Assembly (NCBI RefSeq): GCF_054482525.1
Contig: NZ_JBTHVG010000003.1
From: a plasmid
Strand: one strand, 5' to 3'
Length of the DNA: 64,000 nucleotides
Shown here piece after piece: positions 12,191 through 42,425 of this stretch. Under the pieces are notes generated by a model. That model made no database searches. It saw only the letters and a list, made by a program, of their open reading frames with translations, and was not told the origin of the DNA. A program made the position numbers and the translations under genes. How positions within the stretch are numbered: position 1 is the first letter of the stretch; each line of letters opens with the position of its first letter.

Positions 12191-13510
12191 TTAAGCAGGT
12201 GTGTCAGTTGAAAGAGGTTTGCGTGATTCTGGAAAATGAGGCAGCACCATAGTTTCAGATGCTGTGGTCGCATCCCAGTGCCACCATCCATAAGGCCCAT
12301 ATTCACGGTTGTAATAATCTTTTTTGAGTTGCTTTCGGGCCAGATAAGCAGGAGTGGCCATACCAAATACTTCCATCGGGAACGGCTTATCGCTTTTTGT
12401 GTCGAGCAGGTAGAAGTCAGGGAACACCTCACTAATACTCGCATCATAACGCATGGGCTTAACGTACTGCCGGTGCTCTGCATCCAGCTTTTCTGCAACA
12501 ACCGCCTCATAGGAGGAGTCCAGAGGTATCCAGTTCTCGCTAACGTGCATCAGCACAATTTGATGAGCTCTTACAGAAGGGCCTCTGCCGGTTACCGCAG
12601 CTGGTGACGTCAACGCAAAGACAACTATTTTCGCCCCGGATTTCCATGCTGCGTACTCCGATGAAAATCGTTTCTTTACGCTATCCCAATGGACTTCTGA
12701 ATTGAAAAAAATCAGCGGTAGCCCCCCAAAATTCCGCAGGGGTAAAAATTTAAGTGGCTTCTCATGCTTTTCAGCATCGTAGCGAGGTAAAACTGACAGG
12801 AGCATGAGACGTTTATCACTCATCGCCTGTGATGAAAGACGCTGAATTTGCGACTGAGCGACAGGTTGTTTCGGGTCAGGTACACCAATGAATAAATGGT
12901 CACCTATGCAGGCTCTGCCGGTACGAATTTGTTTAGCGGTTTCAAGCAGACGATACCGTACCAGTGAATCGTTACGTTTCCCTGCCATTTTCGGGTACCA
13001 GACATTCAGACCAGACTCTGTCCACAAAAGACTAAGCAAGCCCAGGAGGGTCATTGAGGCCTGACCTCCTTCTGGTCGCTGAACATGGGGCAGGGGAGGC
13101 ACTTCTGATTTTTCAGGAGGATCTTTCTCTGTCATACCGATACCGAGCCTTACAGCCATATCACCTTCGGTTGTAATCCGGACCACACCACTCGCATATC
13201 CTTTCAGGCCGGTATGCCGGGCATCAAGGGAGAAGAATACACAGGAAGGATCATGCTCAATGCCCGTGTTAGCGGCTTTGACGAGAATAAAGGCATCACC
13301 GTTCGGTAAAGCACGAACATAAAGTCGCTTTTCTCCTTTTCCACGACATCCGCAGGTGATGACTGATTTTTGACCTGAGGTGTGGTGTGCCTTTTTAAGA
13401 GCCGACTGCCACCCTTTAGCAAACTCATCCTGCGTTTGAAAGTCAGGTGAATACCTTTTGACGTTTGGATCGTCGTCGTAAGCAATCATCACTGCGAATT
13501 TTTGGCTCAT
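12191..13510 (-). CDS. hypothetical protein, 439 aa (methyltransferase-linked)
   Basis: Large ORF co-directional with and downstream of the cytosine methyltransferase; no catalytic motif confidently recognised. Confidence 0.55.
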   Translation of the reverse strand: MSQKFAVMIAYDDDPNVKRYSPDFQTQDEFAKGWQSALKKAHHTSGQKSVITCGCRGKGEKRLYVRALPNGDAFILVKAANTGIEHDPSCVFFSLDARHTGLKGYASGVVRITTEGDMAVRLGIGMTEKDPPEKSEVPPLPHVQRPEGGQASMTLLGLLSLLWTESGLNVWYPKMAGKRNDSLVRYRLLETAKQIRTGRACIGDHLFIGVPDPKQPVAQSQIQRLSSQAMSDKRLMLLSVLPRYDAEKHEKPLKFLPLRNFGGLPLIFFNSEVHWDSVKKRFSSEYAAWKSGAKIVVFALTSPAAVTGRGPSVRAHQIVLMHVSENWIPLDSSYEAVVAEKLDAEHRQYVKPMRYDASISEVFPDFYLLDTKSDKPFPMEVFGMATPAYLARKQLKKDYYNREYGPYGWWHWDATTASETMVLPHFPESRKPLSTDTPA

Positions 13511-13532
13511 AGTAGTCTCCTAAACAGGAAGT

Positions 13533-13700
13533 TTAATATCCCAACCAGAGCAACACTTCCTGAGCGTCATACTGTTCCTTTACGCCCATGTCGCTAAAGA
13601 ATTCTTCGAAATCTGTTTCGGGAACGCAATGCCTGGACAGTTCTTGTAATGCTCGTTCTTTAGATACCGTCTCACCTTCAGCTGATTCGAAATACGTCAT
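13533..13700 (-). CDS. small hypothetical protein (55 aa)
   Basis: ORF below the track's size cut-off, translated by hand as MTYFESAEGETVSKERALQELSRH...; sits between the methyltransferase and the 439-aa gene. Confidence 0.3.
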   Translation of the reverse strand: MTYFESAEGETVSKERALQELSRHCVPETDFEEFFSDMGVKEQYDAQEVLLWLGY

Positions 13701-13760: not shown

Positions 13761-15230
13761 TCAGCTGACTTCGTCGTAAAACTGCCGCAAGCGCTGGGAG
13801 GCTGCAAATTCAATTCGTGACTTCAGCAGTTTGGCGACGGCCGCAAAGACATCAACGACCACGGAGTTCCCAAACTGTCTGTAAGCCTGTGTATTGGACA
13901 CAGGGATACGGAAAACACTTTCCCCGGGTTTATCGAAGCCCATTAGCCTGCTGCATTCACGTGGCGTTAGCATGCGTGGCCGACGGTCCATGTTGTATGT
14001 GTTATGGAAATCAGTTTCTCCCAGTTCATGAGACCAGCCCCGATCAATAAGAATTTCAGATCCGTCTTTCATATAGCGGCTTGAGAGGGTTCTGGTGACA
14101 CTATTAACATTGGAAGGATCTACTAGTCCAAAACCAAAACCATTGCCTTTTGCCGCATGTTTCTTTGCATAGTTGTATAAGTACTCCCAGAGTTTAGGGG
14201 AGAGGATGTATTTACTATCTACGCTCGGATCCAGTAAATCTGAGAGAGAAGGGCGCTTGTCCGGATAAAAGTCTTTAATGTCTCTCAGAGTAAAACCGTC
14301 TTTCAGACGTAGGTCGCGGCGAAAACCAATAAGGACGATACGTTCACGGTGCTGGGGTCGGAAATGACGGCCATCGATGACTTTAGGATCATCCGCGCCC
14401 GTGCTTTCGCTGTTTGCGACGTCGTAGCCAAGCTCATCGAGCGTTTTCATGATGATGTTAAAGGTATTACCCTTATCGTGACTCTTCAGATTTTTTACGT
14501 TTTCCAGAACAAAAATTGCAGGTTGTTTTGCCCGGATGATCCTGGCCACATCAAAGAAGAGCGTACCCTGAGTGTCGCACTCGAAACCGTGTTTGCGACC
14601 CATAGAGTTCTTTTTACTGACACCGGCGATGCTGAATGGCTGGCATGGAAATCCCGCAAGAAGAACATCATGATCCGGGATAGAGGCATCGATAAATTTG
14701 TATGCCTCGTCATCAGTAACCTCGGGCCGGTTGCTAAGAGTGATGTCACGGATGTCTGAATTGAAGCGGTGCTCGTTCTCATCGCAATACCAGTTCGCCC
14801 GGTAAGTACGGCTGGAATAAGTATTCCATTCGCTCGTGAAAAGACATTTACCACCGATGGCATCAAATCCGCTTCGCAGTCCACCTATCCCTGCAAACAG
14901 ATCGATAAAGCTAAAGTGCCTGTCCTCATAATCAGCAGGTCGTGAAGGTATTAAAGTCTGTAGATAGCGTCCATCTGCGATACTCAGCTCACAATGCTCA
15001 GGTATGCATGTAACCTGACGTTTAAGGGATGCACGGGACCAATTACTGCCATTTTCATCATTTAATACCTGAGCCAGATATTTCAGGTCATAAATGGTCG
15101 AAGCTGTTAACAAAGTTTTGTGGATCAGAGATGGTGTTTTATCCACATCATTCAGGTCTGTCTCAAGATCATGAGTGTAACGTTTCATCCAAACTCTCTC
15201 AGGAATAATATCTTTGAGATAGATTAACAC
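13761..15230 (-). CDS. DNA cytosine-5 methyltransferase, Dcm/M.EcoRII-like
   Basis: Motif I FAGIGG, motif IV PCQPFS, motif [12 protein letters not shown]; N-terminal extension as in Dcm; true start may be an internal Met. Confidence 0.85.
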
Positions 15231-15399
15231 GCTTAATTTGGATTATTTTTTGGTTCAGGTTCTAAATTTATTGTGATTATTCTGCCTTTAAGTTGCAAAA
15301 AGATTGGTTTTAAGCCCGCCCATGAAATAATGACTTGTTAAAATACTGCCTGTAAATAGGCTTGTGGATACATGTCTGTACTCAACAAATCAAGGTGAA

Positions 15400-15918
15400 A
15401 TGATGTTTTTTTTAACAAAGTTACTTTTGCCCATCATGATTGTTGTATTCCCAGTGGCGTCCTGGGGGAACTCAACAACTTTTGAGGCAAAGGTGGTTAA
15501 GATTGTTGACGGTGACACCATAACTGCGTTGGATGCTCAAAACACAACCATCAAAATACGGATGTATGGTATAGACGCTCCTGAATCTAAACAGGCTTTT
15601 GGCCAAAAAGCAAAACAGGCCTTAACCACAGCTATAGCAACTAAAATCGTTACCGTGATAGACCATGGTACGGATATCTATGGCCGTATGTTAGGTACCA
15701 TCTGGTTAGATGGATATGATATCAATGCCTCTATGGTGGACAGTGGATATGCGTGGGTTTATCGGTTCGAAGATAACGCCATTGTCCCTGGCTATATCAA
15801 ATATGAATCCGCAGCACAAAAGGAGGCAAAAGGGTTATGGGCAGACACCAACCCTGTCCCACCATGGCAGTGGAGACAGGCAAACGAAAAGCCCAGAAAG
15901 GTGAAAGAGAAGAAATAA
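15400..15918 (+). CDS. nuc: secreted thermonuclease (staphylococcal-nuclease fold)
   Basis: Start moved to ATG at 15400 after an AAGGTGA ribosome-binding site; signal peptide then SNase-like core (DGDT, GIDAPE motifs). Confidence 0.75.
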   Translation: MMFFLTKLLLPIMIVVFPVASWGNSTTFEAKVVKIVDGDTITALDAQNTTIKIRMYGIDAPESKQAFGQKAKQALTTAIATKIVTVIDHGTDIYGRMLGTIWLDGYDINASMVDSGYAWVYRFEDNAIVPGYIKYESAAQKEAKGLWADTNPVPPWQWRQANEKPRKVKEKK

Positions 15919-15920
15919 CC

Positions 15921-16817
15921 ATGATGAAAGAGCCTCATCCGTTACTTCAGTTGGTACTAAACGATTCCGGTCGTCTAACCATGCCTGTTTATTATAGAGA
16001 TCAACAGTATTGCCCGACTTGCCTTACAAAGGTGTTGAAGAGTGAGGATGGAAGTTTGGCGCACCTCGGGGAAATAAATCAAAATACATGTAGACCTTCT
16101 ATTTCAGTAGTTGTGACAAAAGCAATTATTGAAATGTTATGTGACGGGGAAAAAATATATGTAAATCCAATACGACACCGAGGCCGGGTGCTGGCACCCT
16201 CAGTAATTTTTTCTCCCGACACTCACACTTTCAAACCGTTTATAAATACAGACTATCAGCCTGTGGGAGCAAACTGGAAAAGTGAAAAGGGATATAAACT
16301 CGGTCTGTTTTATCTCAAAGATCGAGCCAACTCTATCAATAAAGAGGAATTTGATTTCATTGCCGTTATAGACCCTGAGGCAATGCAGAAAGAATTTATT
16401 TCGGCCTGGTCTGAGGTTGATGAAAAAAATCCATTGGAAACGCTGAAGCAGATCTTACGATCTAAAAACAACTCTTCTTTATGGGTAAAATGGCCTGGCA
16501 AAATTGAGCATGCGCAAAAAGGAAATTACAACGAAAATTACTGGTTCGATTATCAATCTGATAATCAGGAAGTGAACTGTACGGTCTCTGTTGTAGGTAT
16601 CGAAGGTAACAGTTCCGGTGAGACAATTTATAGATTGCAAACTTTGCTAAAGCGTAAGCTCAATGAATATCAACTGGTTCGGTCTTTAGGTACTATTATG
16701 CTTCTTGATAATACCGGGAATATGATTCCATCAAACCATCCTTATTTTGAAGTCATCTCAAAAGCATGTATAAATGGAGTGCGTGACTTTGTTCGTCAAA
16801 ACCCGTGGGTAGTCTGA
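15921..16817 (+). CDS. hypothetical protein, 298 aa, coupled to nuc
   Basis: Start at ATG 15921, 3 nt after the nuc stop; contains a CPTC motif; no family recognised. Confidence 0.5.
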   Translation: MMKEPHPLLQLVLNDSGRLTMPVYYRDQQYCPTCLTKVLKSEDGSLAHLGEINQNTCRPSISVVVTKAIIEMLCDGEKIYVNPIRHRGRVLAPSVIFSPDTHTFKPFINTDYQPVGANWKSEKGYKLGLFYLKDRANSINKEEFDFIAVIDPEAMQKEFISAWSEVDEKNPLETLKQILRSKNNSSLWVKWPGKIEHAQKGNYNENYWFDYQSDNQEVNCTVSVVGIEGNSSGETIYRLQTLLKRKLNEYQLVRSLGTIMLLDNTGNMIPSNHPYFEVISKACINGVRDFVRQNPWVV

Positions 16818-16864
16818 CGGTCAACTATAAAGCATAATATAATTAGTAATAACAAGGAACAGAC

Positions 16865-17272
16865 ATGAATGAAAACTCAGTAATCTTAATAAGTTTATTT
16901 TGGTTTTTTTTGGGATCGAGTGTTGTAGCTGGTTTTATGGATGCATCATTATATTGCTGGATTTTTGCAGCCATAAGCGCATTGTTTCTTCTTTCGGTGA
17001 TACAAACACCAAAGGAGTTAACGGTATCTATTAGTCATATGACAAGCAAAACGCTGATCTCAAAGACAGATGATGGATACACATTTAGCATTTCACCTTA
17101 CGGAGACGGGTACCGCTTATCAGTCTCGCCTGAAAATCGTCACAATGGTACCCAAAGCTTTGACGGCTGGTTCCCACGTTTTTTTTCCGAACCACAGTAT
17201 GCCAAATCATCTTTAACTAAATTTCTCGGTGAGTCCTTAGTATGGGAAGAAGATTCAAGTAATGCTCTATGA
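16865..17272 (+). CDS. small membrane protein
   Basis: 135-aa ORF with two N-terminal hydrophobic helices. Confidence 0.4.
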   Translation: MNENSVILISLFWFFLGSSVVAGFMDASLYCWIFAAISALFLLSVIQTPKELTVSISHMTSKTLISKTDDGYTFSISPYGDGYRLSVSPENRHNGTQSFDGWFPRFFSEPQYAKSSLTKFLGESLVWEEDSSNAL

Positions 17273-17317
17273 GATTACTTATTATAAATTTTTCTATTAA
17301 TCTCCATGGAGTGATAT

Positions 17318-17572
17318 ATGAATTTGGCCTATTTTTTATTTTTGTCTATAACTGTTATGCTTACGAGCTTTATTATTAAATCACTTGTCGTATTGGTAAA
17401 GTTCAAATTACTTCGTGATGAACGTCTCGAATATACCAGCAATAAAAATATTGATGAGATGTACGATTTAATGAATGCGAAGGAAGAAATCCTCATAAGG
17501 CATCATAAGCAGATGTTGGCATTGCATCTTTCACTATTAATATTCGTTCTATTTATTGCTTACATTTACTAA
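17318..17572 (+). CDS. small membrane protein
   Basis: 84-aa ORF with hydrophobic helices at both ends. Confidence 0.4.
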   Translation: MNLAYFLFLSITVMLTSFIIKSLVVLVKFKLLRDERLEYTSNKNIDEMYDLMNAKEEILIRHHKQMLALHLSLLIFVLFIAYIY

Positions 17573-17609
17573 AAATAATTTTATTCAACATTTCAACAAA
17601 GGGTTTTCA

Positions 17610-17897
17610 ATGGAAAGCTTCGAAACTGAACAAATGATTCAATATGCTTTCTACATAAATATCGTAATAACGACTGGTTTGGCATGGTTTTGCTTGCGGT
17701 CAGGATTGCATTACAATTTTTTCAGAAAAGCAGAGAGTGCCAGAACAAAAGGGCTGAGTAGTACCTCTACTGAACACGGTCCAGCAATAGTGAGACTAAA
17801 GAAGCTACAAGCATTAGTAGATTTTATTAGTAACTGTGCTTTTCTAATCCTTTCAATTGGCACAGCTTATATTTTGTATGTTTGGAGCCACAGTTAA
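17610..17897 (+). CDS. small membrane protein
   Basis: Start moved to internal ATG at 17610 after an AAAGGG ribosome-binding site; two hydrophobic helices. Confidence 0.35.
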   Translation: MESFETEQMIQYAFYINIVITTGLAWFCLRSGLHYNFFRKAESARTKGLSSTSTEHGPAIVRLKKLQALVDFISNCAFLILSIGTAYILYVWSHS

Positions 17898-17966
17898 CTC
17901 ATACGAGGTAACTTCGGCAGGTAACAACTTCTAATGCAGGACTTTAATAACTCTAAGGGATTCTAC

Positions 17967-18164
17967 ATGAAAAAAGACGATCTAATTACGCGTTGTAAAT
18001 TACTTAAAGGCGAACGCGATGAGTCTATCTTTACCATATTAATTGGGATAGTAGTAAAGCTGGGGCTGGTAGGCCTGGCATTCTATCTGTTGCTTGGTTC
18101 CACGATTGATTGGTCAAGCTGGAAAACTTATGCCGCCATGTTGATCTTGGGAGCATTTCTCTAA
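17967..18164 (+). CDS. small membrane protein
   Basis: Start moved to internal ATG at 17967 after an AAGGGA ribosome-binding site; hydrophobic C-terminal half. Confidence 0.35.
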   Translation: MKKDDLITRCKLLKGERDESIFTILIGIVVKLGLVGLAFYLLLGSTIDWSSWKTYAAMLILGAFL

Positions 18165-18500: not shown

Positions 18501-18962
18501 ATGACAAATTCTCAATCTGATTTTCCTTTGAACGATCAAAATTTTCAGGCAGATTTGCTGAAAATCAAAAAGGTTTTCGCCGACCTTATAACGCAGGCAT
18601 CAGATGGTAAGATACCCATAAGGTCTTCTCATGTACACGGCTTACACCATTTCGAGGAGCTCTACATCCGGGCAAGAGCAGGCATGTGTTCGGTCCTGGG
18701 ATATCCGGTCATGGTTGTTTCAACTATCTCAGTTAAAGAGCCCGGCACAGGCATTTTTAGAGCGCTTCTTGCAGAATTGAAATGTATTGCAGATGAACAA
18801 AATTACATTTTGAAAATTGAAAATGTACTGCCTCCCCTATTCCGCAAATACCTTATTCAAGAAGGTTTTGTTTTCCCAGGTGAACCTTGGATGTGTGGTT
18901 CCGGCTATTGGTTTAAGAACCCACAAGTACTTCATGAAAATATTGAGTTATTATCTGTTTAA
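18501..18962 (+). CDS. hypothetical protein
   Basis: 153-aa ORF; no family recognised. Confidence 0.45.
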   Translation: MTNSQSDFPLNDQNFQADLLKIKKVFADLITQASDGKIPIRSSHVHGLHHFEELYIRARAGMCSVLGYPVMVVSTISVKEPGTGIFRALLAELKCIADEQNYILKIENVLPPLFRKYLIQEGFVFPGEPWMCGSGYWFKNPQVLHENIELLSV

Positions 18963-18991
18963 GTCGATCTAACAATTTCACTGGAGCTAAC

Positions 18992-19399
18992 ATGTCCCCG
19001 GAATTGGTATCAGACATTGCAAGAGTGGCGCATGAAAAGCTACTTTCAATTTTAACGGAGTGCGGCATAGAGAAGACGGCAGGCACTTGCCTTTTTGCAA
19101 GCTATCTTGTGTGTTATTTAGCAAAAACTAAAGGTCTAGATGCTGTTGTCCGTGGGGGTAACGGTGCAGATGATGGCGGTATATTTATAGAGTGTGGTGG
19201 CTTTGGCCATTATTGGTGTGAGTTGAATTTCGAAGAAGTGCAATATTATATTGACATCACTTCCGAACAGTTTGGGTTTCATCCATACATAGTGAAACTC
19301 GCCAACGATATAACAGGATGGCCTCGATATATTCCTGGTGATCAGGAAACGGTCGATAGTCATTTAGAACAATTATTACGCGACGGCTATACAGAATAG
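18992..19399 (+). CDS. hypothetical protein
   Basis: 135-aa ORF, contains a conserved-looking Cys/His patch (CGGFGHYWC); no family assigned. Confidence 0.45.
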   Translation: MSPELVSDIARVAHEKLLSILTECGIEKTAGTCLFASYLVCYLAKTKGLDAVVRGGNGADDGGIFIECGGFGHYWCELNFEEVQYYIDITSEQFGFHPYIVKLANDITGWPRYIPGDQETVDSHLEQLLRDGYTE

Positions 19400-20570: not shown

Positions 20571-20608
20571 GGGGAGCCCGCAGAATTCGGAAAAAATCGT
20601 ACGCTAAG
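20571..20608. repeat. 38-bp terminal inverted repeat of a Tn1721/Tn21-subgroup transposon
   Basis: GGGGAGCCCGCAGAATTCGGAAAAAATCGTACGCTAAG, matching the Tn1721 IR as I recall it; the tnpA stop lies within it. Confidence 0.7.
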
Positions 20609-22120
20609 GTTTTCCGGGCATCCGTAAGGGCCGAAACTTCCCGTCTTCCAGTCTGCGGCTCTGCCGCCAGACGTAATCGCCGGTTAGGTTGATGTGCTCC
20701 CAGCCCAGCGGCGACAGGAATTGCAGCAGCTCGCCGTCCACCGGCTTGCCGGCCTCGACCAACCCCTGGGTGGCGCGTTCCAGGTACACCGTGTTCCACA
20801 GCACGATAGCCGCCGTCACCAGGTTGAGGCCGCTGGCCCGGTAGCGCTGCTGCTCGAAGCTCCGATCCCTGATTTCCCCAAGGCGGTTGAAGAACACCGC
20901 CCTGGCCAGCGAGTTGCGCGCCTCACCTTTGTTCAGGCCGGCATGCACGCGGCGGCGCAGTTCAACACTTTGCAGCCAGTCCAGGATGAACAGCGTGCGC
21001 TCGATCCGGCCCAGCTCGCGCAGGGCCACGGCCAGTCCGTTCTGGCGCGGGTAGCTGCCGAGCTTGCGCAGCATCAGCGAGGCGGTGACGGTGCCCTGCT
21101 TGATCGAGCTGGCCAGGCGCAGGATGTCGTCCCAGTGGGCACGCACGTGCTTGATGTTCAGGGTGCCGCCGATCAGCGGGCGCAACGTCGGGTAGGCTTG
21201 CACGCCCTGCGGCACGTACAGCTTGGTTTCGCCGAGGTCGCGGATGCGCGGCGCGAAGCGGAAGCCTAGCAGGTGCATCAGGGCAAAGACGTGATCGGTG
21301 AAGCCGGCCGTGTCGGTGTAGTGCTCCTCGATCCGCAGGTCGGACTCGTGGTACAGCAGGCCGTCGAGCACATAGGTGGAATCGCGGACGCCGACATTCA
21401 CCACGCGGGTGCTGAACGGCGCGTACTGGTCGGAGATATGGGTATAGAACAGCCGTCCCGGCTCGCTACCGTACTTCGGGTTGACGTGCCCGGTGCTCTC
21501 GCCCCGGCCACCCGCGCGGAAGCGCTGGCCATCGGAGGATGAGGTCGTGCCGTCGCCCCAGTGGGCGGCAAAGGCGTGGCGATACTGGTGGTTGACCAGC
21601 TCGGCCAAGGCCGCCGAATAGGTTTCGTCGCGGATGTGCCAGGCTTGCAGCCAGGACAGCTTGGCGTAGGTCAGGCCGGGGCTCGACTCGGCCATCTTGG
21701 TCAGCCCGAGGTTGATCGCATCACCGAGGATTGCGGACAGCAGCAACGTCCTGTCTTTGGCCTCGGCCCCGTCCTTCAAGTGGGTGAAGTGGCGGCTGAA
21801 GCCCGTCCAGTCGTCCACGTCCATCAGCAGTTCGGTGATCTTGATGCGCGGCAGTAACTGGCTGGTTTGGTCGATCAGCGCCTGCGCCCGATCCGGCACC
21901 GCCGCATCCAGCGGGGTGATTTTCAGCCCTGACTCGGTGAGGATGGCATCGGGCAGCTCGTTGTCCTTGGCCAGGCGGGTGACGGTGGCCAACTGCTCGT
22001 CCAGCAGCTGCAAACGCTCTTCCAGGTACTGGTCGCTGTTCGGGTTGATCGCCAGGGGCAGGGCCTGCTCGCGCTTGAGTGCGGCGAACTTCTCGGCCGG
22101 CAGCAGGTAGTCGTCGAAGT
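20604..22120 (-). pseudogene. tnpA: Tn1721/Tn21-family transposase, 3' fragment truncated by IS26
   Basis: High-GC ORF encoding the C-terminal ~505 aa of a Tn3-family TnpA; reading frame runs into IS26 at 22121. Confidence 0.85.
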
Positions 22121-22940
22121 GGCACTGTTGCAAATAGTCGGTGGTGATAAACTTATCATCCCCTTTTGCTGATGGAGCTGCACATGAACCCATTCAAAGG
22201 CCGGCATTTTCAGCGTGACATCATTCTGTGGGCCGTACGCTGGTACTGCAAATACGGCATCAGTTACCGTGAGCTGCAGGAGATGCTGGCTGAACGCGGA
22301 GTGAATGTCGATCACTCCACGATTTACCGCTGGGTTCAGCGTTATGCGCCTGAAATGGAAAAACGGCTGCGCTGGTACTGGCGTAACCCTTCCGATCTTT
22401 GCCCGTGGCACATGGATGAAACCTACGTGAAGGTCAATGGCCGCTGGGCGTATCTGTACCGGGCCGTCGACAGCCGGGGCCGCACTGTCGATTTTTATCT
22501 CTCCTCCCGTCGTAACAGCAAAGCTGCATACCGGTTTCTGGGTAAAATCCTCAACAACGTGAAGAAGTGGCAGATCCCGCGATTCATCAACACGGATAAA
22601 GCGCCCGCCTATGGTCGCGCGCTTGCTCTGCTCAAACGCGAAGGCCGGTGCCCGTCTGACGTTGAACACCGACAGATTAAGTACCGGAACAACGTGATTG
22701 AATGCGATCATGGCAAACTGAAACGGATAATCGGCGCCACGCTGGGATTTAAATCCATGAAGACGGCTTACGCCACCATCAAAGGTATTGAGGTGATGCG
22801 TGCACTACGCAAAGGCCAGGCCTCAGCATTTTATTATGGTGATCCCCTGGGCGAAATGCGCCTGGTAAGCAGAGTTTTTGAAATGTAAGGCCTTTGAATA
22901 AGACAAAAGGCTGCCTCATCGCTAACTTTGCAACAGTGCC
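22121..22940 (+). mobile_element. tnp26: IS26 copy 1 (canonical Tnp26)
   Basis: 820 bp bounded by GGCACTGTTGCAAA terminal repeats; Tnp26 coding 22184-22888; residue 184 is Gly. Confidence 0.95.
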
Positions 22941-38073: not shown

Positions 38074-39249
38074 ATGAGCCTGCAAAAAACCTGGGGAAAC
38101 ATTCACCTGACCGCGCTCGGCGCGATGATGCTCTCCTTTCTGCTCGTCGGCTGCGACGACAGCGTCGCACAGAATGCTGCGCCTCCCGCCCCGACGGTCA
38201 GCGCCGCTAAGGTGCTGGTGAAGTCGATCAGTCAGTGGGATAGTTTTAACGGTCGCATTGAAGCGGTGGAGAGCGTTCAGCTTCGCCCTCGCGTCTCGGG
38301 ATACATTGATAAAGTGAATTACACTGACGGCCAGGAGGTGAAAAAGGGCCAGGTGCTGTTCACGATAGATGACAGAACCTATCGCGCCGCGCTGGAGCAG
38401 GCGCAGGCGGCGTTGGCAAGAGCCAAAACGCAGGCCAGCCTCGCGCAAAGCGAGGCGAACCGCACCGATAAATTAGTCCATACCAACCTCGTCTCCCGTG
38501 AAGAGTGGGAGCAGCGCCGGTCAGCCGCGGTTCAGGCGCAGGCCGACGTTCGCGCCGCGCAGGCGGCGGTGGATGCCGCGCAGCTTAACCTCGACTTCAC
38601 CAAAGTGACCGCCCCTATTGACGGCCGCGCCAGCCGGGCGCTGATCACCAGCGGTAACCTGGTCACCGCGGGCGACACCGCCAGCGTGCTCACCACCCTG
38701 GTCTCGCAAAAGACGGTGTACGTCTACTTTGACGTCGACGAGTCAACCTACCTCCACTATCAAAACCTCGCCCGCCGCGGGCAAGGCGCGTCCAGCGATA
38801 ATCAGGCGCTCCCGGTGGAGATTGGCCTGGTGGGCGAGGAGGGTTACCCCCACCAGGGCAAAGTGGATTTTCTCGATAATCAGTTAACGCCGAGTACCGG
38901 CACCATCCGCATGCGTGCGCTGCTGGATAACTCGCAGCGTCTGTTCACGCCGGGGCTGTTTGCCCGCGTGCGTCTGCCGGGCAGCGCAGAGTTCAAAGCC
39001 ACGCTGATCGACGACAAAGCGGTACTGACCGATCAGGATCGTAAATACGTCTATATCGTTGATAAAGATGGTAAAGCACAGCGCCGCGACATTACCCCAG
39101 GGCGGCTGGCAGACGGTTTACGCATCGTTCAGAAGGGGTTGAATCCTGGGGATAGCGTCATCGTCGACGGCTTACAAAAAGTGTTTATGCCGGGTATGCC
39201 GGTTAACGCCAAAACCGTTGCCATGACCTCCAGCGCCACCCTTAACTGA
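38074..39249 (+). CDS. oqxA: RND efflux periplasmic adaptor OqxA
   Basis: 391-aa ORF with lipoprotein signal (LLVGC) and membrane-fusion-protein sequence matching OqxA as recalled. Confidence 0.95.
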   Translation: MSLQKTWGNIHLTALGAMMLSFLLVGCDDSVAQNAAPPAPTVSAAKVLVKSISQWDSFNGRIEAVESVQLRPRVSGYIDKVNYTDGQEVKKGQVLFTIDDRTYRAALEQAQAALARAKTQASLAQSEANRTDKLVHTNLVSREEWEQRRSAAVQAQADVRAAQAAVDAAQLNLDFTKVTAPIDGRASRALITSGNLVTAGDTASVLTTLVSQKTVYVYFDVDESTYLHYQNLARRGQGASSDNQALPVEIGLVGEEGYPHQGKVDFLDNQLTPSTGTIRMRALLDNSQRLFTPGLFARVRLPGSAEFKATLIDDKAVLTDQDRKYVYIVDKDGKAQRRDITPGRLADGLRIVQKGLNPGDSVIVDGLQKVFMPGMPVNAKTVAMTSSATLN

Positions 39250-39272
39250 TCCCTAATCAGAGAATCCAAGAC

Positions 39273-42200
39273 ATGGACTTTTCCCGCTTTTTTATCGACA
39301 GGCCGATTTTCGCCGCGGTGCTGTCGATTTTAATTTTTATCACCGGGTTAATCGCTATCCCACTGCTGCCGGTGAGCGAATATCCGGATGTCGTCCCGCC
39401 GAGCGTCCAGGTGCGCGCGGAGTATCCCGGCGCCAACCCGAAAGTGATTGCCGAGACCGTGGCGACGCCGCTGGAGGAAGCGATCAACGGCGTTGAAAAC
39501 ATGATGTACATGAAATCGGTCGCCGGCTCCGACGGCGTGCTGGTCACCACCGTCACCTTCCGCCCGGGTACCGACCCGGATCAGGCGCAGGTTCAGGTGC
39601 AGAACCGCGTCGCGCAGGCCGAAGCGCGTCTGCCGGAGGATGTACGCCGTCTGGGGATCACCACCCAGAAGCAGTCTCCGACGCTGACCCTGGTGGTGCA
39701 TCTGTTCTCCCCCGGCGGGAAGTACGACTCGCTGTATATGCGCAACTACGCCACGCTGAAAGTGAAGGATGAGCTGGCGCGCCTGCCCGGCGTCGGCCAG
39801 ATCCAGATTTTTGGCTCCGGTGAATATGCGATGCGCGTCTGGCTGGATCCCAATAAGGTCGCTGCCCGCGGTCTGACGGCCTCGGATGTGGTGACGGCGA
39901 TGCAGGAGCAAAACGTCCAGGTGTCTGCCGGACAGCTTGGCGCCGAGCCGCTGCCGCAGGAGAGCGATTTCCTGATCTCCATTAACGCCCAGGGCCGTCT
40001 GCATACCGAAGAAGAGTTTGGCAATATCATTCTGAAAACGGCGCAGGATGGCTCGCTGGTCCGCCTGCGCGACGTGGCGCGCATCGAGATGGGTTCCGGT
40101 AGCTATGCGCTGCGCTCCCAGCTCAACAATAAGGATGCGGTCGGGATCGGTATCTTCCAGTCACCCGGCGCTAACGCCATCGATCTGTCGAACGCGGTAC
40201 GCGCCAAAATGGCCGAGCTGGCCACCCGCTTCCCGGAAGATATGCAATGGGCGGCGCCGTACGACCCGACGGTTTTCGTCCGCGACTCCATCCGCGCGGT
40301 GGTGCAGACGCTGCTGGAGGCGGTAGTGCTGGTGGTGCTGGTAGTGATCCTGTTCCTGCAGACCTGGCGCGCGTCGATTATCCCGTTGATCGCTGTGCCG
40401 GTATCGGTGGTGGGTACCTTCAGCATTCTCTATCTGCTGGGCTTCTCGCTGAATACCCTGAGCCTGTTCGGGCTGGTACTGGCTATCGGTATCGTGGTGG
40501 ACGACGCCATCGTGGTGGTGGAGAACGTCGAGCGTAATATCGAAGAGGGGCTTGCGCCGCTTGCCGCGGCGTATCAGGCGATGCGTGAGGTCTCCGGGCC
40601 GATTATCGCCATTGCGCTGGTGCTGTGTGCGGTGTTCGTGCCGATGGCGTTTCTCTCCGGGGTCACCGGCCAGTTCTACAAACAGTTCGCGGTGACCATC
40701 GCCATCTCGACGGTGATCTCGGCCATCAACTCGCTGACGCTCTCCCCGGCGCTGGCGGCCCTGCTGTTAAAGCCGCACGGCGCGAAGAAAGACCTCCCTA
40801 CCCGGCTGATCGATCGCCTGTTTGGCTGGATTTTCCGTCCGTTTAACCGCTTTTTCCTGCGCAGCTCGAACGGCTATCAGGGACTGGTAGGCAAAACGCT
40901 TGGACGCCGTGGCGCAGTGTTTGCGGTGTACCTGCTGCTGCTCTGCGCCGCTGGGGTGATGTTTAAAGTCGTCCCCGGCGGGTTTATTCCCACCCAGGAT
41001 AAGCTGTATCTCATTGGCGGCGTGAAGATGCCGGAAGGGTCGTCGCTGGCGCGCACCGACGCGGTGATCCGCAAAATGAGCGAGATCGGGATGAATACCG
41101 AAGGGGTCGACTATGCGGTCGCTTTCCCGGGGCTTAACGCGCTGCAGTTCACCAACACGCCGAATACCGGGACGATCTTTTTTGGCCTGAAACCGTTCGA
41201 CCAGCGCAAACACACGGCGGCGGAAATTAACGCGGAGATCAACGCCAAAATCGCGCAAATCCAGCAGGGCTTTGGCTTTTCCATCCTGCCGCCGCCGATT
41301 TTAGGTCTGGGTCAGGGTTCCGGCTACTCCCTGTACATCCAGGATCGCGGAGGGCTGGGCTATGGCGCGCTGCAAAGCGCGGTGAATGCGATGTCCGGGG
41401 CGATTATGCAGACGCCGGGGATGCACTTCCCGATCTCGACTTACCAGGCTAACGTGCCGCAGCTGGACGTGCAGGTCGATCGCGATAAGGCGAAAGCGCA
41501 GGGGGTATCGCTAACCGATCTGTTCGGTACGCTGCAGACCTATCTCGGCTCGTCTTATGTCAATGACTTTAACCAGTTCGGGCGTACCTGGCGCGTGATG
41601 GCCCAGGCTGACGGACCATACCGCGAGAGCGTGGAAGATATCGCCAATCTGCGCACCCGCAATAATCAGGGCGAAATGGTACCGATCGGCAGTATGGTGA
41701 ATATCAGTACCACCTACGGGCCGGATCCGGTGATCCGCTACAACGGTTATCCGGCGGCGGACCTGATTGGCGATGCCGATCCGCGGGTCCTCTCTTCTTC
41801 GCAGGCGATGACGCATCTGGAAGAGCTGTCGAAGCAGATCCTGCCGAATGGGATGAATATTGAGTGGACGGATCTCAGCTTCCAGCAGGCCACCCAGGGC
41901 AACACGGCGCTGATCGTCTTCCCGGTGGCGGTGCTGCTGGCATTCCTCGTACTGGCCGCGCTGTATGAAAGCTGGACCCTGCCGCTGGCGGTGATCCTTA
42001 TCGTACCGATGACGATGCTCTCCGCGCTGTTTGGCGTCTGGCTGACCGGGGGCGATAACAACGTCTTCGTGCAGGTGGGTCTGGTGGTCCTGATGGGCCT
42101 GGCCTGTAAAAACGCCATTCTGATCGTCGAGTTTGCCCGCGAGCTGGAGATCCAGGGGAAAGGCATCATGGAAGCGGCGCTGGAGGCATGCCGCCTGCGT

Positions 42201-42425
42201 CTGCGCCCGATCGTGATGACCTCCATCGCCTTTATCGCCGGGACCATTCCGCTGATCCTCGGCCACGGCGCGGGGGCGGAAGTCCGCGGCGTCACCGGGA
42301 TCACGGTGTTCTCCGGGATGCTGGGCGTGACGCTCTTCGGTCTGTTCCTGACGCCGGTGTTTTACGTGACGCTACGGAAACTGGTGACCCGCAGGAAGCC
42401 GGTCCAGGAGGATCTGCCCGCCTAG
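39273..42425 (+). CDS. oqxB: RND efflux transporter OqxB
   Basis: 1050-aa ORF, 12-TM RND permease, 23 bp downstream of oqxA. Confidence 0.95.
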   Translation: MDFSRFFIDRPIFAAVLSILIFITGLIAIPLLPVSEYPDVVPPSVQVRAEYPGANPKVIAETVATPLEEAINGVENMMYMKSVAGSDGVLVTTVTFRPGTDPDQAQVQVQNRVAQAEARLPEDVRRLGITTQKQSPTLTLVVHLFSPGGKYDSLYMRNYATLKVKDELARLPGVGQIQIFGSGEYAMRVWLDPNKVAARGLTASDVVTAMQEQNVQVSAGQLGAEPLPQESDFLISINAQGRLHTEEEFGNIILKTAQDGSLVRLRDVARIEMGSGSYALRSQLNNKDAVGIGIFQSPGANAIDLSNAVRAKMAELATRFPEDMQWAAPYDPTVFVRDSIRAVVQTLLEAVVLVVLVVILFLQTWRASIIPLIAVPVSVVGTFSILYLLGFSLNTLSLFGLVLAIGIVVDDAIVVVENVERNIEEGLAPLAAAYQAMREVSGPIIAIALVLCAVFVPMAFLSGVTGQFYKQFAVTIAISTVISAINSLTLSPALAALLLKPHGAKKDLPTRLIDRLFGWIFRPFNRFFLRSSNGYQGLVGKTLGRRGAVFAVYLLLLCAAGVMFKVVPGGFIPTQDKLYLIGGVKMPEGSSLARTDAVIRKMSEIGMNTEGVDYAVAFPGLNALQFTNTPNTGTIFFGLKPFDQRKHTAAEINAEINAKIAQIQQGFGFSILPPPILGLGQGSGYSLYIQDRGGLGYGALQSAVNAMSGAIMQTPGMHFPISTYQANVPQLDVQVDRDKAKAQGVSLTDLFGTLQTYLGSSYVNDFNQFGRTWRVMAQADGPYRESVEDIANLRTRNNQGEMVPIGSMVNISTTYGPDPVIRYNGYPAADLIGDADPRVLSSSQAMTHLEELSKQILPNGMNIEWTDLSFQQATQGNTALIVFPVAVLLAFLVLAALYESWTLPLAVILIVPMTMLSALFGVWLTGGDNNVFVQVGLVVLMGLACKNAILIVEFARELEIQGKGIMEAALEACRLRLRPIVMTSIAFIAGTIPLILGHGAGAEVRGVTGITVFSGMLGVTLFGLFLTPVFYVTLRKLVTRRKPVQEDLPA

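Follow-up and report, generated by a model that had tools for sequence, protein, structure and literature searches.

An exported staphylococcal-nuclease-type enzyme and its constant cytoplasmic neighbor in the backbone of IncHI-type conjugative plasmids

When a gene for a secreted nuclease is followed almost without spacing by a gene for a larger protein of an orphan family and then by a row of small membrane proteins, the question arises which of these genes form a unit and whether the neighbors export, neutralize or accompany the nuclease. This question is raised by positions 15,400 to 18,164 of a stretch of plasmid DNA of 64,000 nucleotides (nt) (NCBI RefSeq assembly GCF_054482525.1, contig NZ_JBTHVG010000003.1), which is referred to as the window. 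A first-pass annotation, made from the letters alone, had described six open reading frames (ORFs) on one strand, encoding a staphylococcal nuclease (SNase)-like enzyme with a signal peptide, a protein of 298 amino acids (aa) with a CPTC motif, here called the partner, and four small membrane proteins, and it had suggested a single operon with an export, immunity or exclusion function. All of these ORFs exist as described. The analysis reported here reduces the conserved unit to the first two genes, and we give about even chances to the reading that these encode two nucleic-acid-handling proteins that are co-expressed but act in different compartments. The elements of this unit are the following:

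15336..15344, plus strand: candidate extended -10 promoter element (TG-t-TAAAAT) of the pair, about 55 nt 5' of the nuclease start codon (alignment)
15400..15918, plus strand: SNase-family (thermonuclease-like) nuclease, 172 aa, or 171 aa from the start at 15403 chosen by the Prokaryotic Genome Annotation Pipeline (PGAP) (Pfam, alignment, ratio of non-synonymous to synonymous substitution rates, dN/dS)
15400..15468, plus strand: Sec signal peptide predicted for the nuclease (residues 1-23), with the likely cleavage site after ...ASWG (hydropathy)
15921..16817, plus strand: the partner, a cytoplasmic protein of 298 aa from an orphan family, with a predicted architecture like that of CoiA (predicted structure)
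16011..16091, plus strand: putative zinc-ribbon segment of the partner, C31-P-T-C34 ... H48 ... C57 (residue conservation)

The first gene was identified by its match to the Pfam SNase domain (PF00565; E 5.3e-24), which covers model positions 1-107 of 107. Alignment to structures of staphylococcal nuclease in the Protein Data Bank (PDB) showed that the equivalents of DGDT, R35, D40, E43, Y85 and R87 are retained, the D21 equivalent lying within DGDT and the R of IRMYG, D-A-P-E and Y-G-R all being present. These catalytic and Ca2+-site residues are invariant among 12 lineages, and judged from the sequence the catalytic and Ca2+ site is intact. The N-terminus (MMFFLTKLLLPIMIVVFPVASWG) is hydrophobic, with a hydropathy of 2.27 over residues 1-19; a hydrophobic N-terminus with an AxA-type site at its end is found in 12/12 nuclease orthologues, and none of the partners has a signal peptide. 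The domain match, the hydrophobic N-terminus and the retained catalytic residues support the secreted staphylococcal-nuclease-like enzyme that had been proposed. Against named SNase equivalogs the protein scores far below the curated NCBIfam cutoffs, namely 68 bits of 180 for EcnA (NF047969), 49 of 250 for NucI (NF047694) and at most 25 of at least 283 for the PRK06518 models, and it is therefore a member of the SNase family and none of these named proteins. SNase-type genes are found in at least 5,000 plasmid records. With the staphylococcal nuclease/thermonuclease family (PF00565) the enzyme shares the domain, the catalytic and Ca2+-binding residues and, as in many members, an N-terminal export signal; it differs from other members in forming a distinct IncHI clade, in which the partner gene is always next.

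The ATG of the partner (15921) lies two bases past the TAA stop codon of the nuclease (15916-15918), and its CPTC motif occupies residues 31-34. The pair is syntenic in 12/12 lineages, with partner identity down to about 20%, and nine further divergent partners (73% to about 20% identity) have a same-strand SNase gene directly upstream in 9/9 cases, so that the tight coupling of the two genes, suspected from their spacing, holds in every relative examined. Across lineages the junction varies from an 8-nt overlap to a 17-nt gap. IncHI1-type plasmids (R27-like, pLec-476cz), whose partner is 52% identical, possess DUF1173, a small ORF and a gene for a Dcm-type methyltransferase facing the nuclease-partner pair. 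Since lineage L013 contains the pair with no Dcm gene nearby, the pair was taken as the core unit. Purifying selection on both genes is indicated by their dN/dS ratios (nuclease 0.10-0.13, partner 0.19-0.24), and sequence change is 2-5 times faster in the partner. The conservation in 12 divergent lineages and these ratios show that neither gene is a chance reading frame. The region of 3 kb belongs to the backbone of a large IncHI2 resistance plasmid. It recurs with 100% identity in over 600 large conjugative plasmids of the IncHI2 type, from Escherichia, Salmonella, Enterobacter and Klebsiella, and with 95-99% identity in about 460 additional plasmids, and more than 1,400 sequenced plasmids have the pair in their backbone.

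When the intergenic regions between Dcm and the nuclease were aligned for nine divergent lineages, a TTG.TA.AAT block (TG-n-TAnAAT) was seen at a constant spacing to the nuclease start, and this extended -10 element would be the best candidate for the promoter of the pair. A consensus scan for promoters and terminators gave counts at chance level, and only the alignment-derived element was retained. In one natural plasmid an IS3-family element (L025 656-1788) is located between Dcm and the nuclease and cuts the latter off from the putative promoter. When positions 15403-16817 of the window are compared with L021 and with L002/L003, the partner shows 2-3 times the synonymous divergence of the adjacent nuclease (0.70 vs 0.37 and 0.52 vs 0.18), which hints at recombination or a mosaic history inside the operon. 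In one divergent lineage, on a contig of 154 kb (L006 8640-12942), the pair and three small ORFs are directly followed by the type VI secretion genes VipA, VipB, VasE and DotU.

The partner possesses no hydrophobic segment. It has no usable match in NCBIfam, PADLOC, PHROGs or PDB sequence profiles, and the partner of the window has no Pfam match even at E 10; the distant family member P0049 shows weak Pfam matches of its N-terminus to DUF7828, DUF7830, CoiA_N (E 0.2) and Zn_Ribbon_1. A profile of the family retrieved 26 relatives from 1.84 billion representatives, and 34-40 clusters of relatives were found among 5.8 billion, all of them without a name. All relatives reside on enterobacterial-type conjugative plasmids or plasmid-like contigs, and a search for phage homologues found none. 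Within the nuclease-linked partners C31 and C34 are conserved in 15/17 each, H48 in 12/17 and C57 in 14/17, the CPTC cysteines being absent in two lineages, and from this pattern the segment looks like a small zinc ribbon. The idea that the partner is a cryptic phospholipase-D (PLD) protein arose because one paper lists "thermonuclease, phospholipase D" and a PLD gene follows the nuclease in plasmid pPMK1-NDM; it was rejected at an hhalign probability of 0.06%. UniProt entry H9THC4 from Salmonella Heidelberg, a "TNase-like domain-containing protein" of 473 aa, includes the whole partner at 100% identity and appears to be a nuclease-partner fusion, either by a natural frameshift or as an annotation artefact. 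Partner-like proteins repeatedly adjoin very large Ig-like (Big_3/DUF4165) proteins (L004 7137-12101, L015 4836-9816, L017 5976-8408); Ig-like RSP proteins of IncHI plasmids were reported to be required for conjugation (PMC6764697).

In the AlphaFold2 (AF2) model of the partner, a hairpin region at the N-terminus is followed by a central alpha/beta domain and, at the C-terminus, by a domain of sheet plus helix (alpha+beta); a Foldseek search matched the partner to a CoiA-like protein at E 1.6e-5. CoiA was described as a cytoplasmic D-loop resolvase restricted to competence in Bacillota, in which a zinc finger at the N-terminus precedes a PD-(D/E)XK core and a C-terminal extension lacking annotation, with the catalytic Asp in beta2 and Glu in beta3 being D95 and E105 in the Streptococcus pneumoniae enzyme (10.1101/2024.02.06.579203). 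The predicted domain order of the partner equals this architecture, and the small zinc finger of CoiA has an N-terminal counterpart in the putative zinc ribbon C31-x2-C34 ... H48 ... C57, present in the window protein and in most nuclease-linked members. However, no sequence match supports the relation, and the catalytic Asp and Glu of CoiA have no identifiable conserved counterparts: the family-wide invariant polar residues are S121, K123, E234 and D263, and the candidate acids D111 and E122 are kept in 6/17 and 11/17 nuclease-linked partners, respectively. Because no conserved triad was identified, the modeled resemblance to this DNA enzyme is placed at the level of fold and architecture only. 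CoiA is moreover encoded by a chromosomal competence gene of Bacillota, whereas the partner is found on enterobacterial conjugative plasmids and, unlike CoiA, is always paired with an exported nuclease. The remote-homology and structure search that had been recommended for the 298-aa protein thus yielded a predicted CoiA-like architecture and no match to a family profile.

Taking these results together, we propose that the pair may form an operon of two genes in the backbone of IncHI-type (MOBH/MPF_F) conjugative plasmids, driven by the extended -10 promoter that faces away from the Dcm gene. The first gene would supply a Sec-exported, Ca2+-dependent SNase-type nuclease acting on DNA or RNA either in the periplasm or extracellularly. 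The second, translationally coupled gene would supply a cytoplasmic protein with a zinc ribbon, a restriction-endonuclease-like alpha/beta core and a C-terminal alpha+beta domain, which may bind, and possibly cut, structured or single-stranded DNA inside the cell. Since the nuclease would be exported and the partner would be cytoplasmic and resembles a DNA enzyme, two co-expressed functions are the likeliest among the readings considered here, rather than a toxin with its antidote or an export machine. In agreement, the slot after the nuclease in pPMK1-NDM (L022 4567-5385), a member of a partner-less sister lineage, is taken by a different cytoplasmic nuclease-type protein of the single-HKD PLDc_2 type, which may be a non-orthologous occupant of the partner's slot. 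A comparable layout is known from the parCBA stability operon of RP4/RK2, in which ParB is an SNase-like Ca2+-dependent nuclease: it is likewise a plasmid backbone operon that joins an SNase-type nuclease with another DNA-processing protein. The IncHI pair differs in that no resolvase or ParC equivalent adjoins it and in that the partner is not a serine recombinase.

Several results weigh against the reading of two co-expressed functions. The AF2 model of the partner reached moderate confidence (pLDDT 72.6, pTM 0.59), and the family contains no conserved canonical D...(D/E)xK triad; with S121, K123, E234 and D263 as its invariant residues, the partner could therefore be non-catalytic or use another chemistry. 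At the level of hidden Markov models no link to CoiA (PF06054, or CoiA_N, PF25164) was found, a CoiA match at E <=0.1 being absent from all 24 family members tested, and the deep searches of 1.84 billion representatives and 5.8 billion clusters ended in a closed family of hypothetical proteins with no sequences bridging to CoiA or to a named family. In the literature no functional or experimental study of either gene was found. Furthermore, two independent functions leave the strict translational coupling to the nuclease unexplained. A more specific form, in which the pair would be a two-compartment plasmid DNA-handling module of an exported SNase breaking down DNA at the envelope and a cytoplasmic CoiA-like structure-specific nuclease acting on single-stranded or D-loop DNA, e.g., incoming conjugative or transforming DNA, is considered unlikely.

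That the partner is a cytoplasmic inhibitor or chaperone ("immunity"), which binds the nuclease precursor prior to export and keeps it harmless or export-competent, is regarded as rather doubtful. Secreted nucleases with cytoplasmic inhibitors are known from barnase-barstar, colicin DNase-Im and Anabaena NucA-NuiA, and the resemblance lies in a gene for an exported nuclease that is directly followed by, and translationally coupled to, a gene for a cytoplasmic protein. A nuclease gene precedes every full-length partner, stop and start codons often overlap, and the signal peptide is found on the nuclease alone. The 2-5 times faster divergence of the partner resembles that of many immunity proteins, and structural matches of its C-terminal domain, although weak, point to an NTF2- or cystatin-like sub-domain; such folds occur among immunity proteins. 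In contrast to the known inhibitors, however, the partner is bigger than its nuclease and DNA-enzyme-like, and it is missing beside the nearest relatives of the nuclease. Klebsiella IncHI1B/IncFIB plasmids encode nuclease relatives of 50-52% identity in the same slot beside DUF1173 without a partner; next to the nuclease lies the PLDc_2 gene in pPMK1-NDM and an H-NS gene at another such locus, and after the IncC nuclease comes an HU gene, again without a partner. Whereas a toxin would be expected never to occur without its inhibitor, these nucleases do. Conversely, IncT and Klebsiella MOBH plasmids encode shorter or unlinked partner-like proteins with neither a nuclease nor a methyltransferase nearby. 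A linker-fused AF2 co-fold of nuclease and partner, based on 12 paired sequences, gave a pTM of 0.43 compared with 0.59 for the partner alone and left the local confidence unchanged, i.e., it gave no sign of a complex, although this is a weak test because the alignment is shallow and the model comes without predicted aligned error. SNase requires Ca2+ at levels that are not found in the cytoplasm, which speaks against a need for protection there. In addition, one report describes engineered E. coli strains in which staphylococcal nuclease was exported to the periplasm (PMC5674116). The immunity or export role considered at first is thus weakened, since the closest nuclease relatives lack the partner, the co-fold brings no gain in confidence and the partner exceeds the nuclease in size and is CoiA-like in its predicted fold.

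The neighborhood upstream of the pair raises the question whether the partner works with the methyltransferase instead. The genes concerned are:

13761..15230, minus strand: Dcm-subfamily DNA cytosine-5 methyltransferase, divergent from the pair (NCBIfam PRK10458)
12191..13700, minus strand: DUF1173 protein (12191-13510) and 55-aa ORF (13533-13700), conserved backbone behind Dcm (annotation, Pfam)

On this view the partner would be a restriction-type endonuclease that spares methylated CCWGG, or a Vsr-like enzyme for T:G repair after deamination of 5-methylcytosine, and the nuclease would merely be co-operonic. The neighbor is a true member of the Dcm subfamily (846 bits against PRK10458, cutoff 710), and a methyltransferase gene divergent from a gene with an endonuclease fold is typical of restriction-modification systems, to which the modeled restriction-endonuclease-like fold of the partner would conform. 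DUF1173 flanks the partner-less nuclease of the Klebsiella plasmids as well, and among the DUF1173-flanked nuclease loci the partner is present where Dcm is present (10 loci) and absent where Dcm is absent (L022, L023); as the presence of the partner tracks that of Dcm, a restriction-like or Vsr-like role is kept as a minority hypothesis, though an improbable one. These counts represent few independent evolutionary events. Dcm is found upstream of the pair in most lineages but is absent in L013 and fragmented in L007 and L008, and the unlinked partner-like proteins have no methyltransferase nearby, which is at odds with a type II restriction-modification system, where the cognate methyltransferase is always present. 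Neither Vsr nor a restriction enzyme is among the structural matches of the partner, in which a catalytic triad could not be traced. As to the methyltransferase itself, a possible GTG start lies at 15230, 14 codons 5' of the PGAP start (window 15189-15230); a TAACAC/TAACAT motif (minus-strand start codon) is conserved there in nine lineages, and therefore the annotated gene may be too short.

The operon of six genes that had been proposed first does not hold beyond its first two members. Downstream of the partner the following ORFs are found:

16865..17272, plus strand: orf3, 135 aa, chimera from a 530-bp deletion with the junction between 17032 and 17033 (BLASTN and translation against L011 and L012)
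17318..17572, plus strand: orf4, 84 aa, two hydrophobic segments, without PGAP annotation in the reference record (hydropathy)
17610..17897, plus strand: orf5, 95 aa (113 aa from TTG 17556), one to two hydrophobic segments (hydropathy)
17967..18164, plus strand: orf6, 65 aa (76 aa from ATG 17934), one to two hydrophobic segments, IncHI2-only (hydropathy)

A hydrophobic segment was defined as 19 residues with a Kyte-Doolittle hydropathy of >=1.6. The description as four small membrane proteins is correct insofar as each ORF has one to two such segments, but the 135-aa ORF is a chimera, because, relative to the R478-like lineages L011 and L012, a deletion of 530 bp joined two formerly separate ORFs, one for a membrane protein (104 aa), of which the first ~56 codons are left, and one for a soluble protein (77 aa), of which the last ~75 codons are left; the same deletion eliminated an 85-aa ORF, and the R478-like IncHI2 lineage has seven small ORFs compared with four in the window. 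That the small membrane proteins export, anchor or neutralize the nuclease, or mediate exclusion, as parts of one six-gene operon is very unlikely in our view. In keeping with such an operon, the genes lie on one strand with gaps of 37-69 nt before the small ORFs, no convincing terminator was predicted within the six-ORF block, and small units recur after the pair: the soluble 77-aa unit in L002, L006 and L018 (55-62% aa identity), orf4 as an identical protein in L011, a 42%-identity relative in L018 and a partial relative in L009, and orf5 as a 35%-identity relative in the IncHI1-type plasmid pLec-476cz (L002; dN/dS 0.27). For the recurring units dN is well under a saturated dS, and judged from this they look like real genes, not noise; orf6 shows 9 non-synonymous versus 5 synonymous codon differences between IncHI2 lineages. 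Yet the block, i.e., the downstream 1.5 kb, is confined to IncHI2, and even there its content varies, other genes replacing the orf6 end in pN17S347-1. In several other lineages unrelated or opposite-strand genes directly follow the partner, the most widely conserved small unit is the soluble and not a membrane-bound one, and the nuclease carries its own Sec signal. The tail is also broken by insertion sequences, namely IS1D (L026 3195-3892) or IS903B within the tail of natural plasmids and an IS4-family element (IS10) 180 bp 3' of the partner in an R27-type plasmid (L003 7613-8821), and the IS-bearing records L003, L025 and L026 are still typed as conjugative. Non-synteny in relatives, which had been named in advance as decisive, thus applies to the six-gene block and does not apply to the pair. 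The most fitting view of the tail is that of a drifting collection of small accessory genes with a tendency to follow the pair, lineage-specific, dispensable and outside the conserved unit, though they may be co-transcribed with it.

Finally, a role of the pair in defence against phages or plasmids, with the partner as sensor of invading DNA and the nuclease as effector, is highly improbable, for although the nuclease weakly matches a protein of the PADLOC candidate system "SNc+LTD" (E 3e-11) and a methyltransferase and other DNA-related backbone genes lie nearby, that match spans the generic SNase domain only, the partner has neither a PADLOC match nor phage homologues, and a cytoplasmic sensor would have no direct control over an exported nuclease.

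In the reference record, plasmid pSTM6-275, in which PGAP annotates 4/6 ORFs, the region sits in the backbone with the resistance region on one side and, on the other side and in this order, pco copper-resistance genes, DUF4942, a protein of about 400 aa, DUF1173, the 55-aa ORF and the DNA cytosine methyltransferase. An Rfam scan of 12-21 kb of the window gave no match. Beyond a gap of 336 nt after the small ORFs lie two more same-strand ORFs of 153 aa and 135 aa (18501-19399), annotated as hypothetical proteins in the reference plasmid. Positions 20600-44000 form a mosaic region of higher GC with seven TTG-start ORFs of 240 aa each (22166, 24821, 26681, 30884(-), 34701, 37050(-) and 43076(-)); by their appearance these are multiple copies of a single, IS26-like insertion sequence. 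This part of the window also contains a gene pair of 391 aa and 1050 aa with the appearance of an RND efflux pump (38074-42425) and, on the minus strand, a 529-aa ORF resembling a truncated Tn3-family transposase (20604-22193).

For the annotation of these plasmids the analysis brings a correction, as two genes rather than six make up the conserved unit, and the 135-aa "membrane protein" is an artefact produced by a deletion. If the partner were an inhibitor, it would represent a new class of SNase inhibitor; if it were a CoiA-like DNA-structure nuclease, a type of enzyme described for Bacillota competence only would extend to Gram-negative plasmids. Either outcome would be modestly useful, and no long-standing open question is addressed by them. 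In Salmonella, E. coli and Enterobacter, plasmids of the types IncHI1 and IncHI2 rank among the major carriers of resistance to multiple drugs, colistin and heavy metals. Should the two-compartment module be real, it would be the first CoiA-type recombination nuclease at work on Gram-negative conjugative plasmids and would give them control over recombination, establishment or exclusion of foreign DNA; a CoiA-like partner would thereby provide a concrete candidate for how IncHI plasmids handle incoming or branched DNA.

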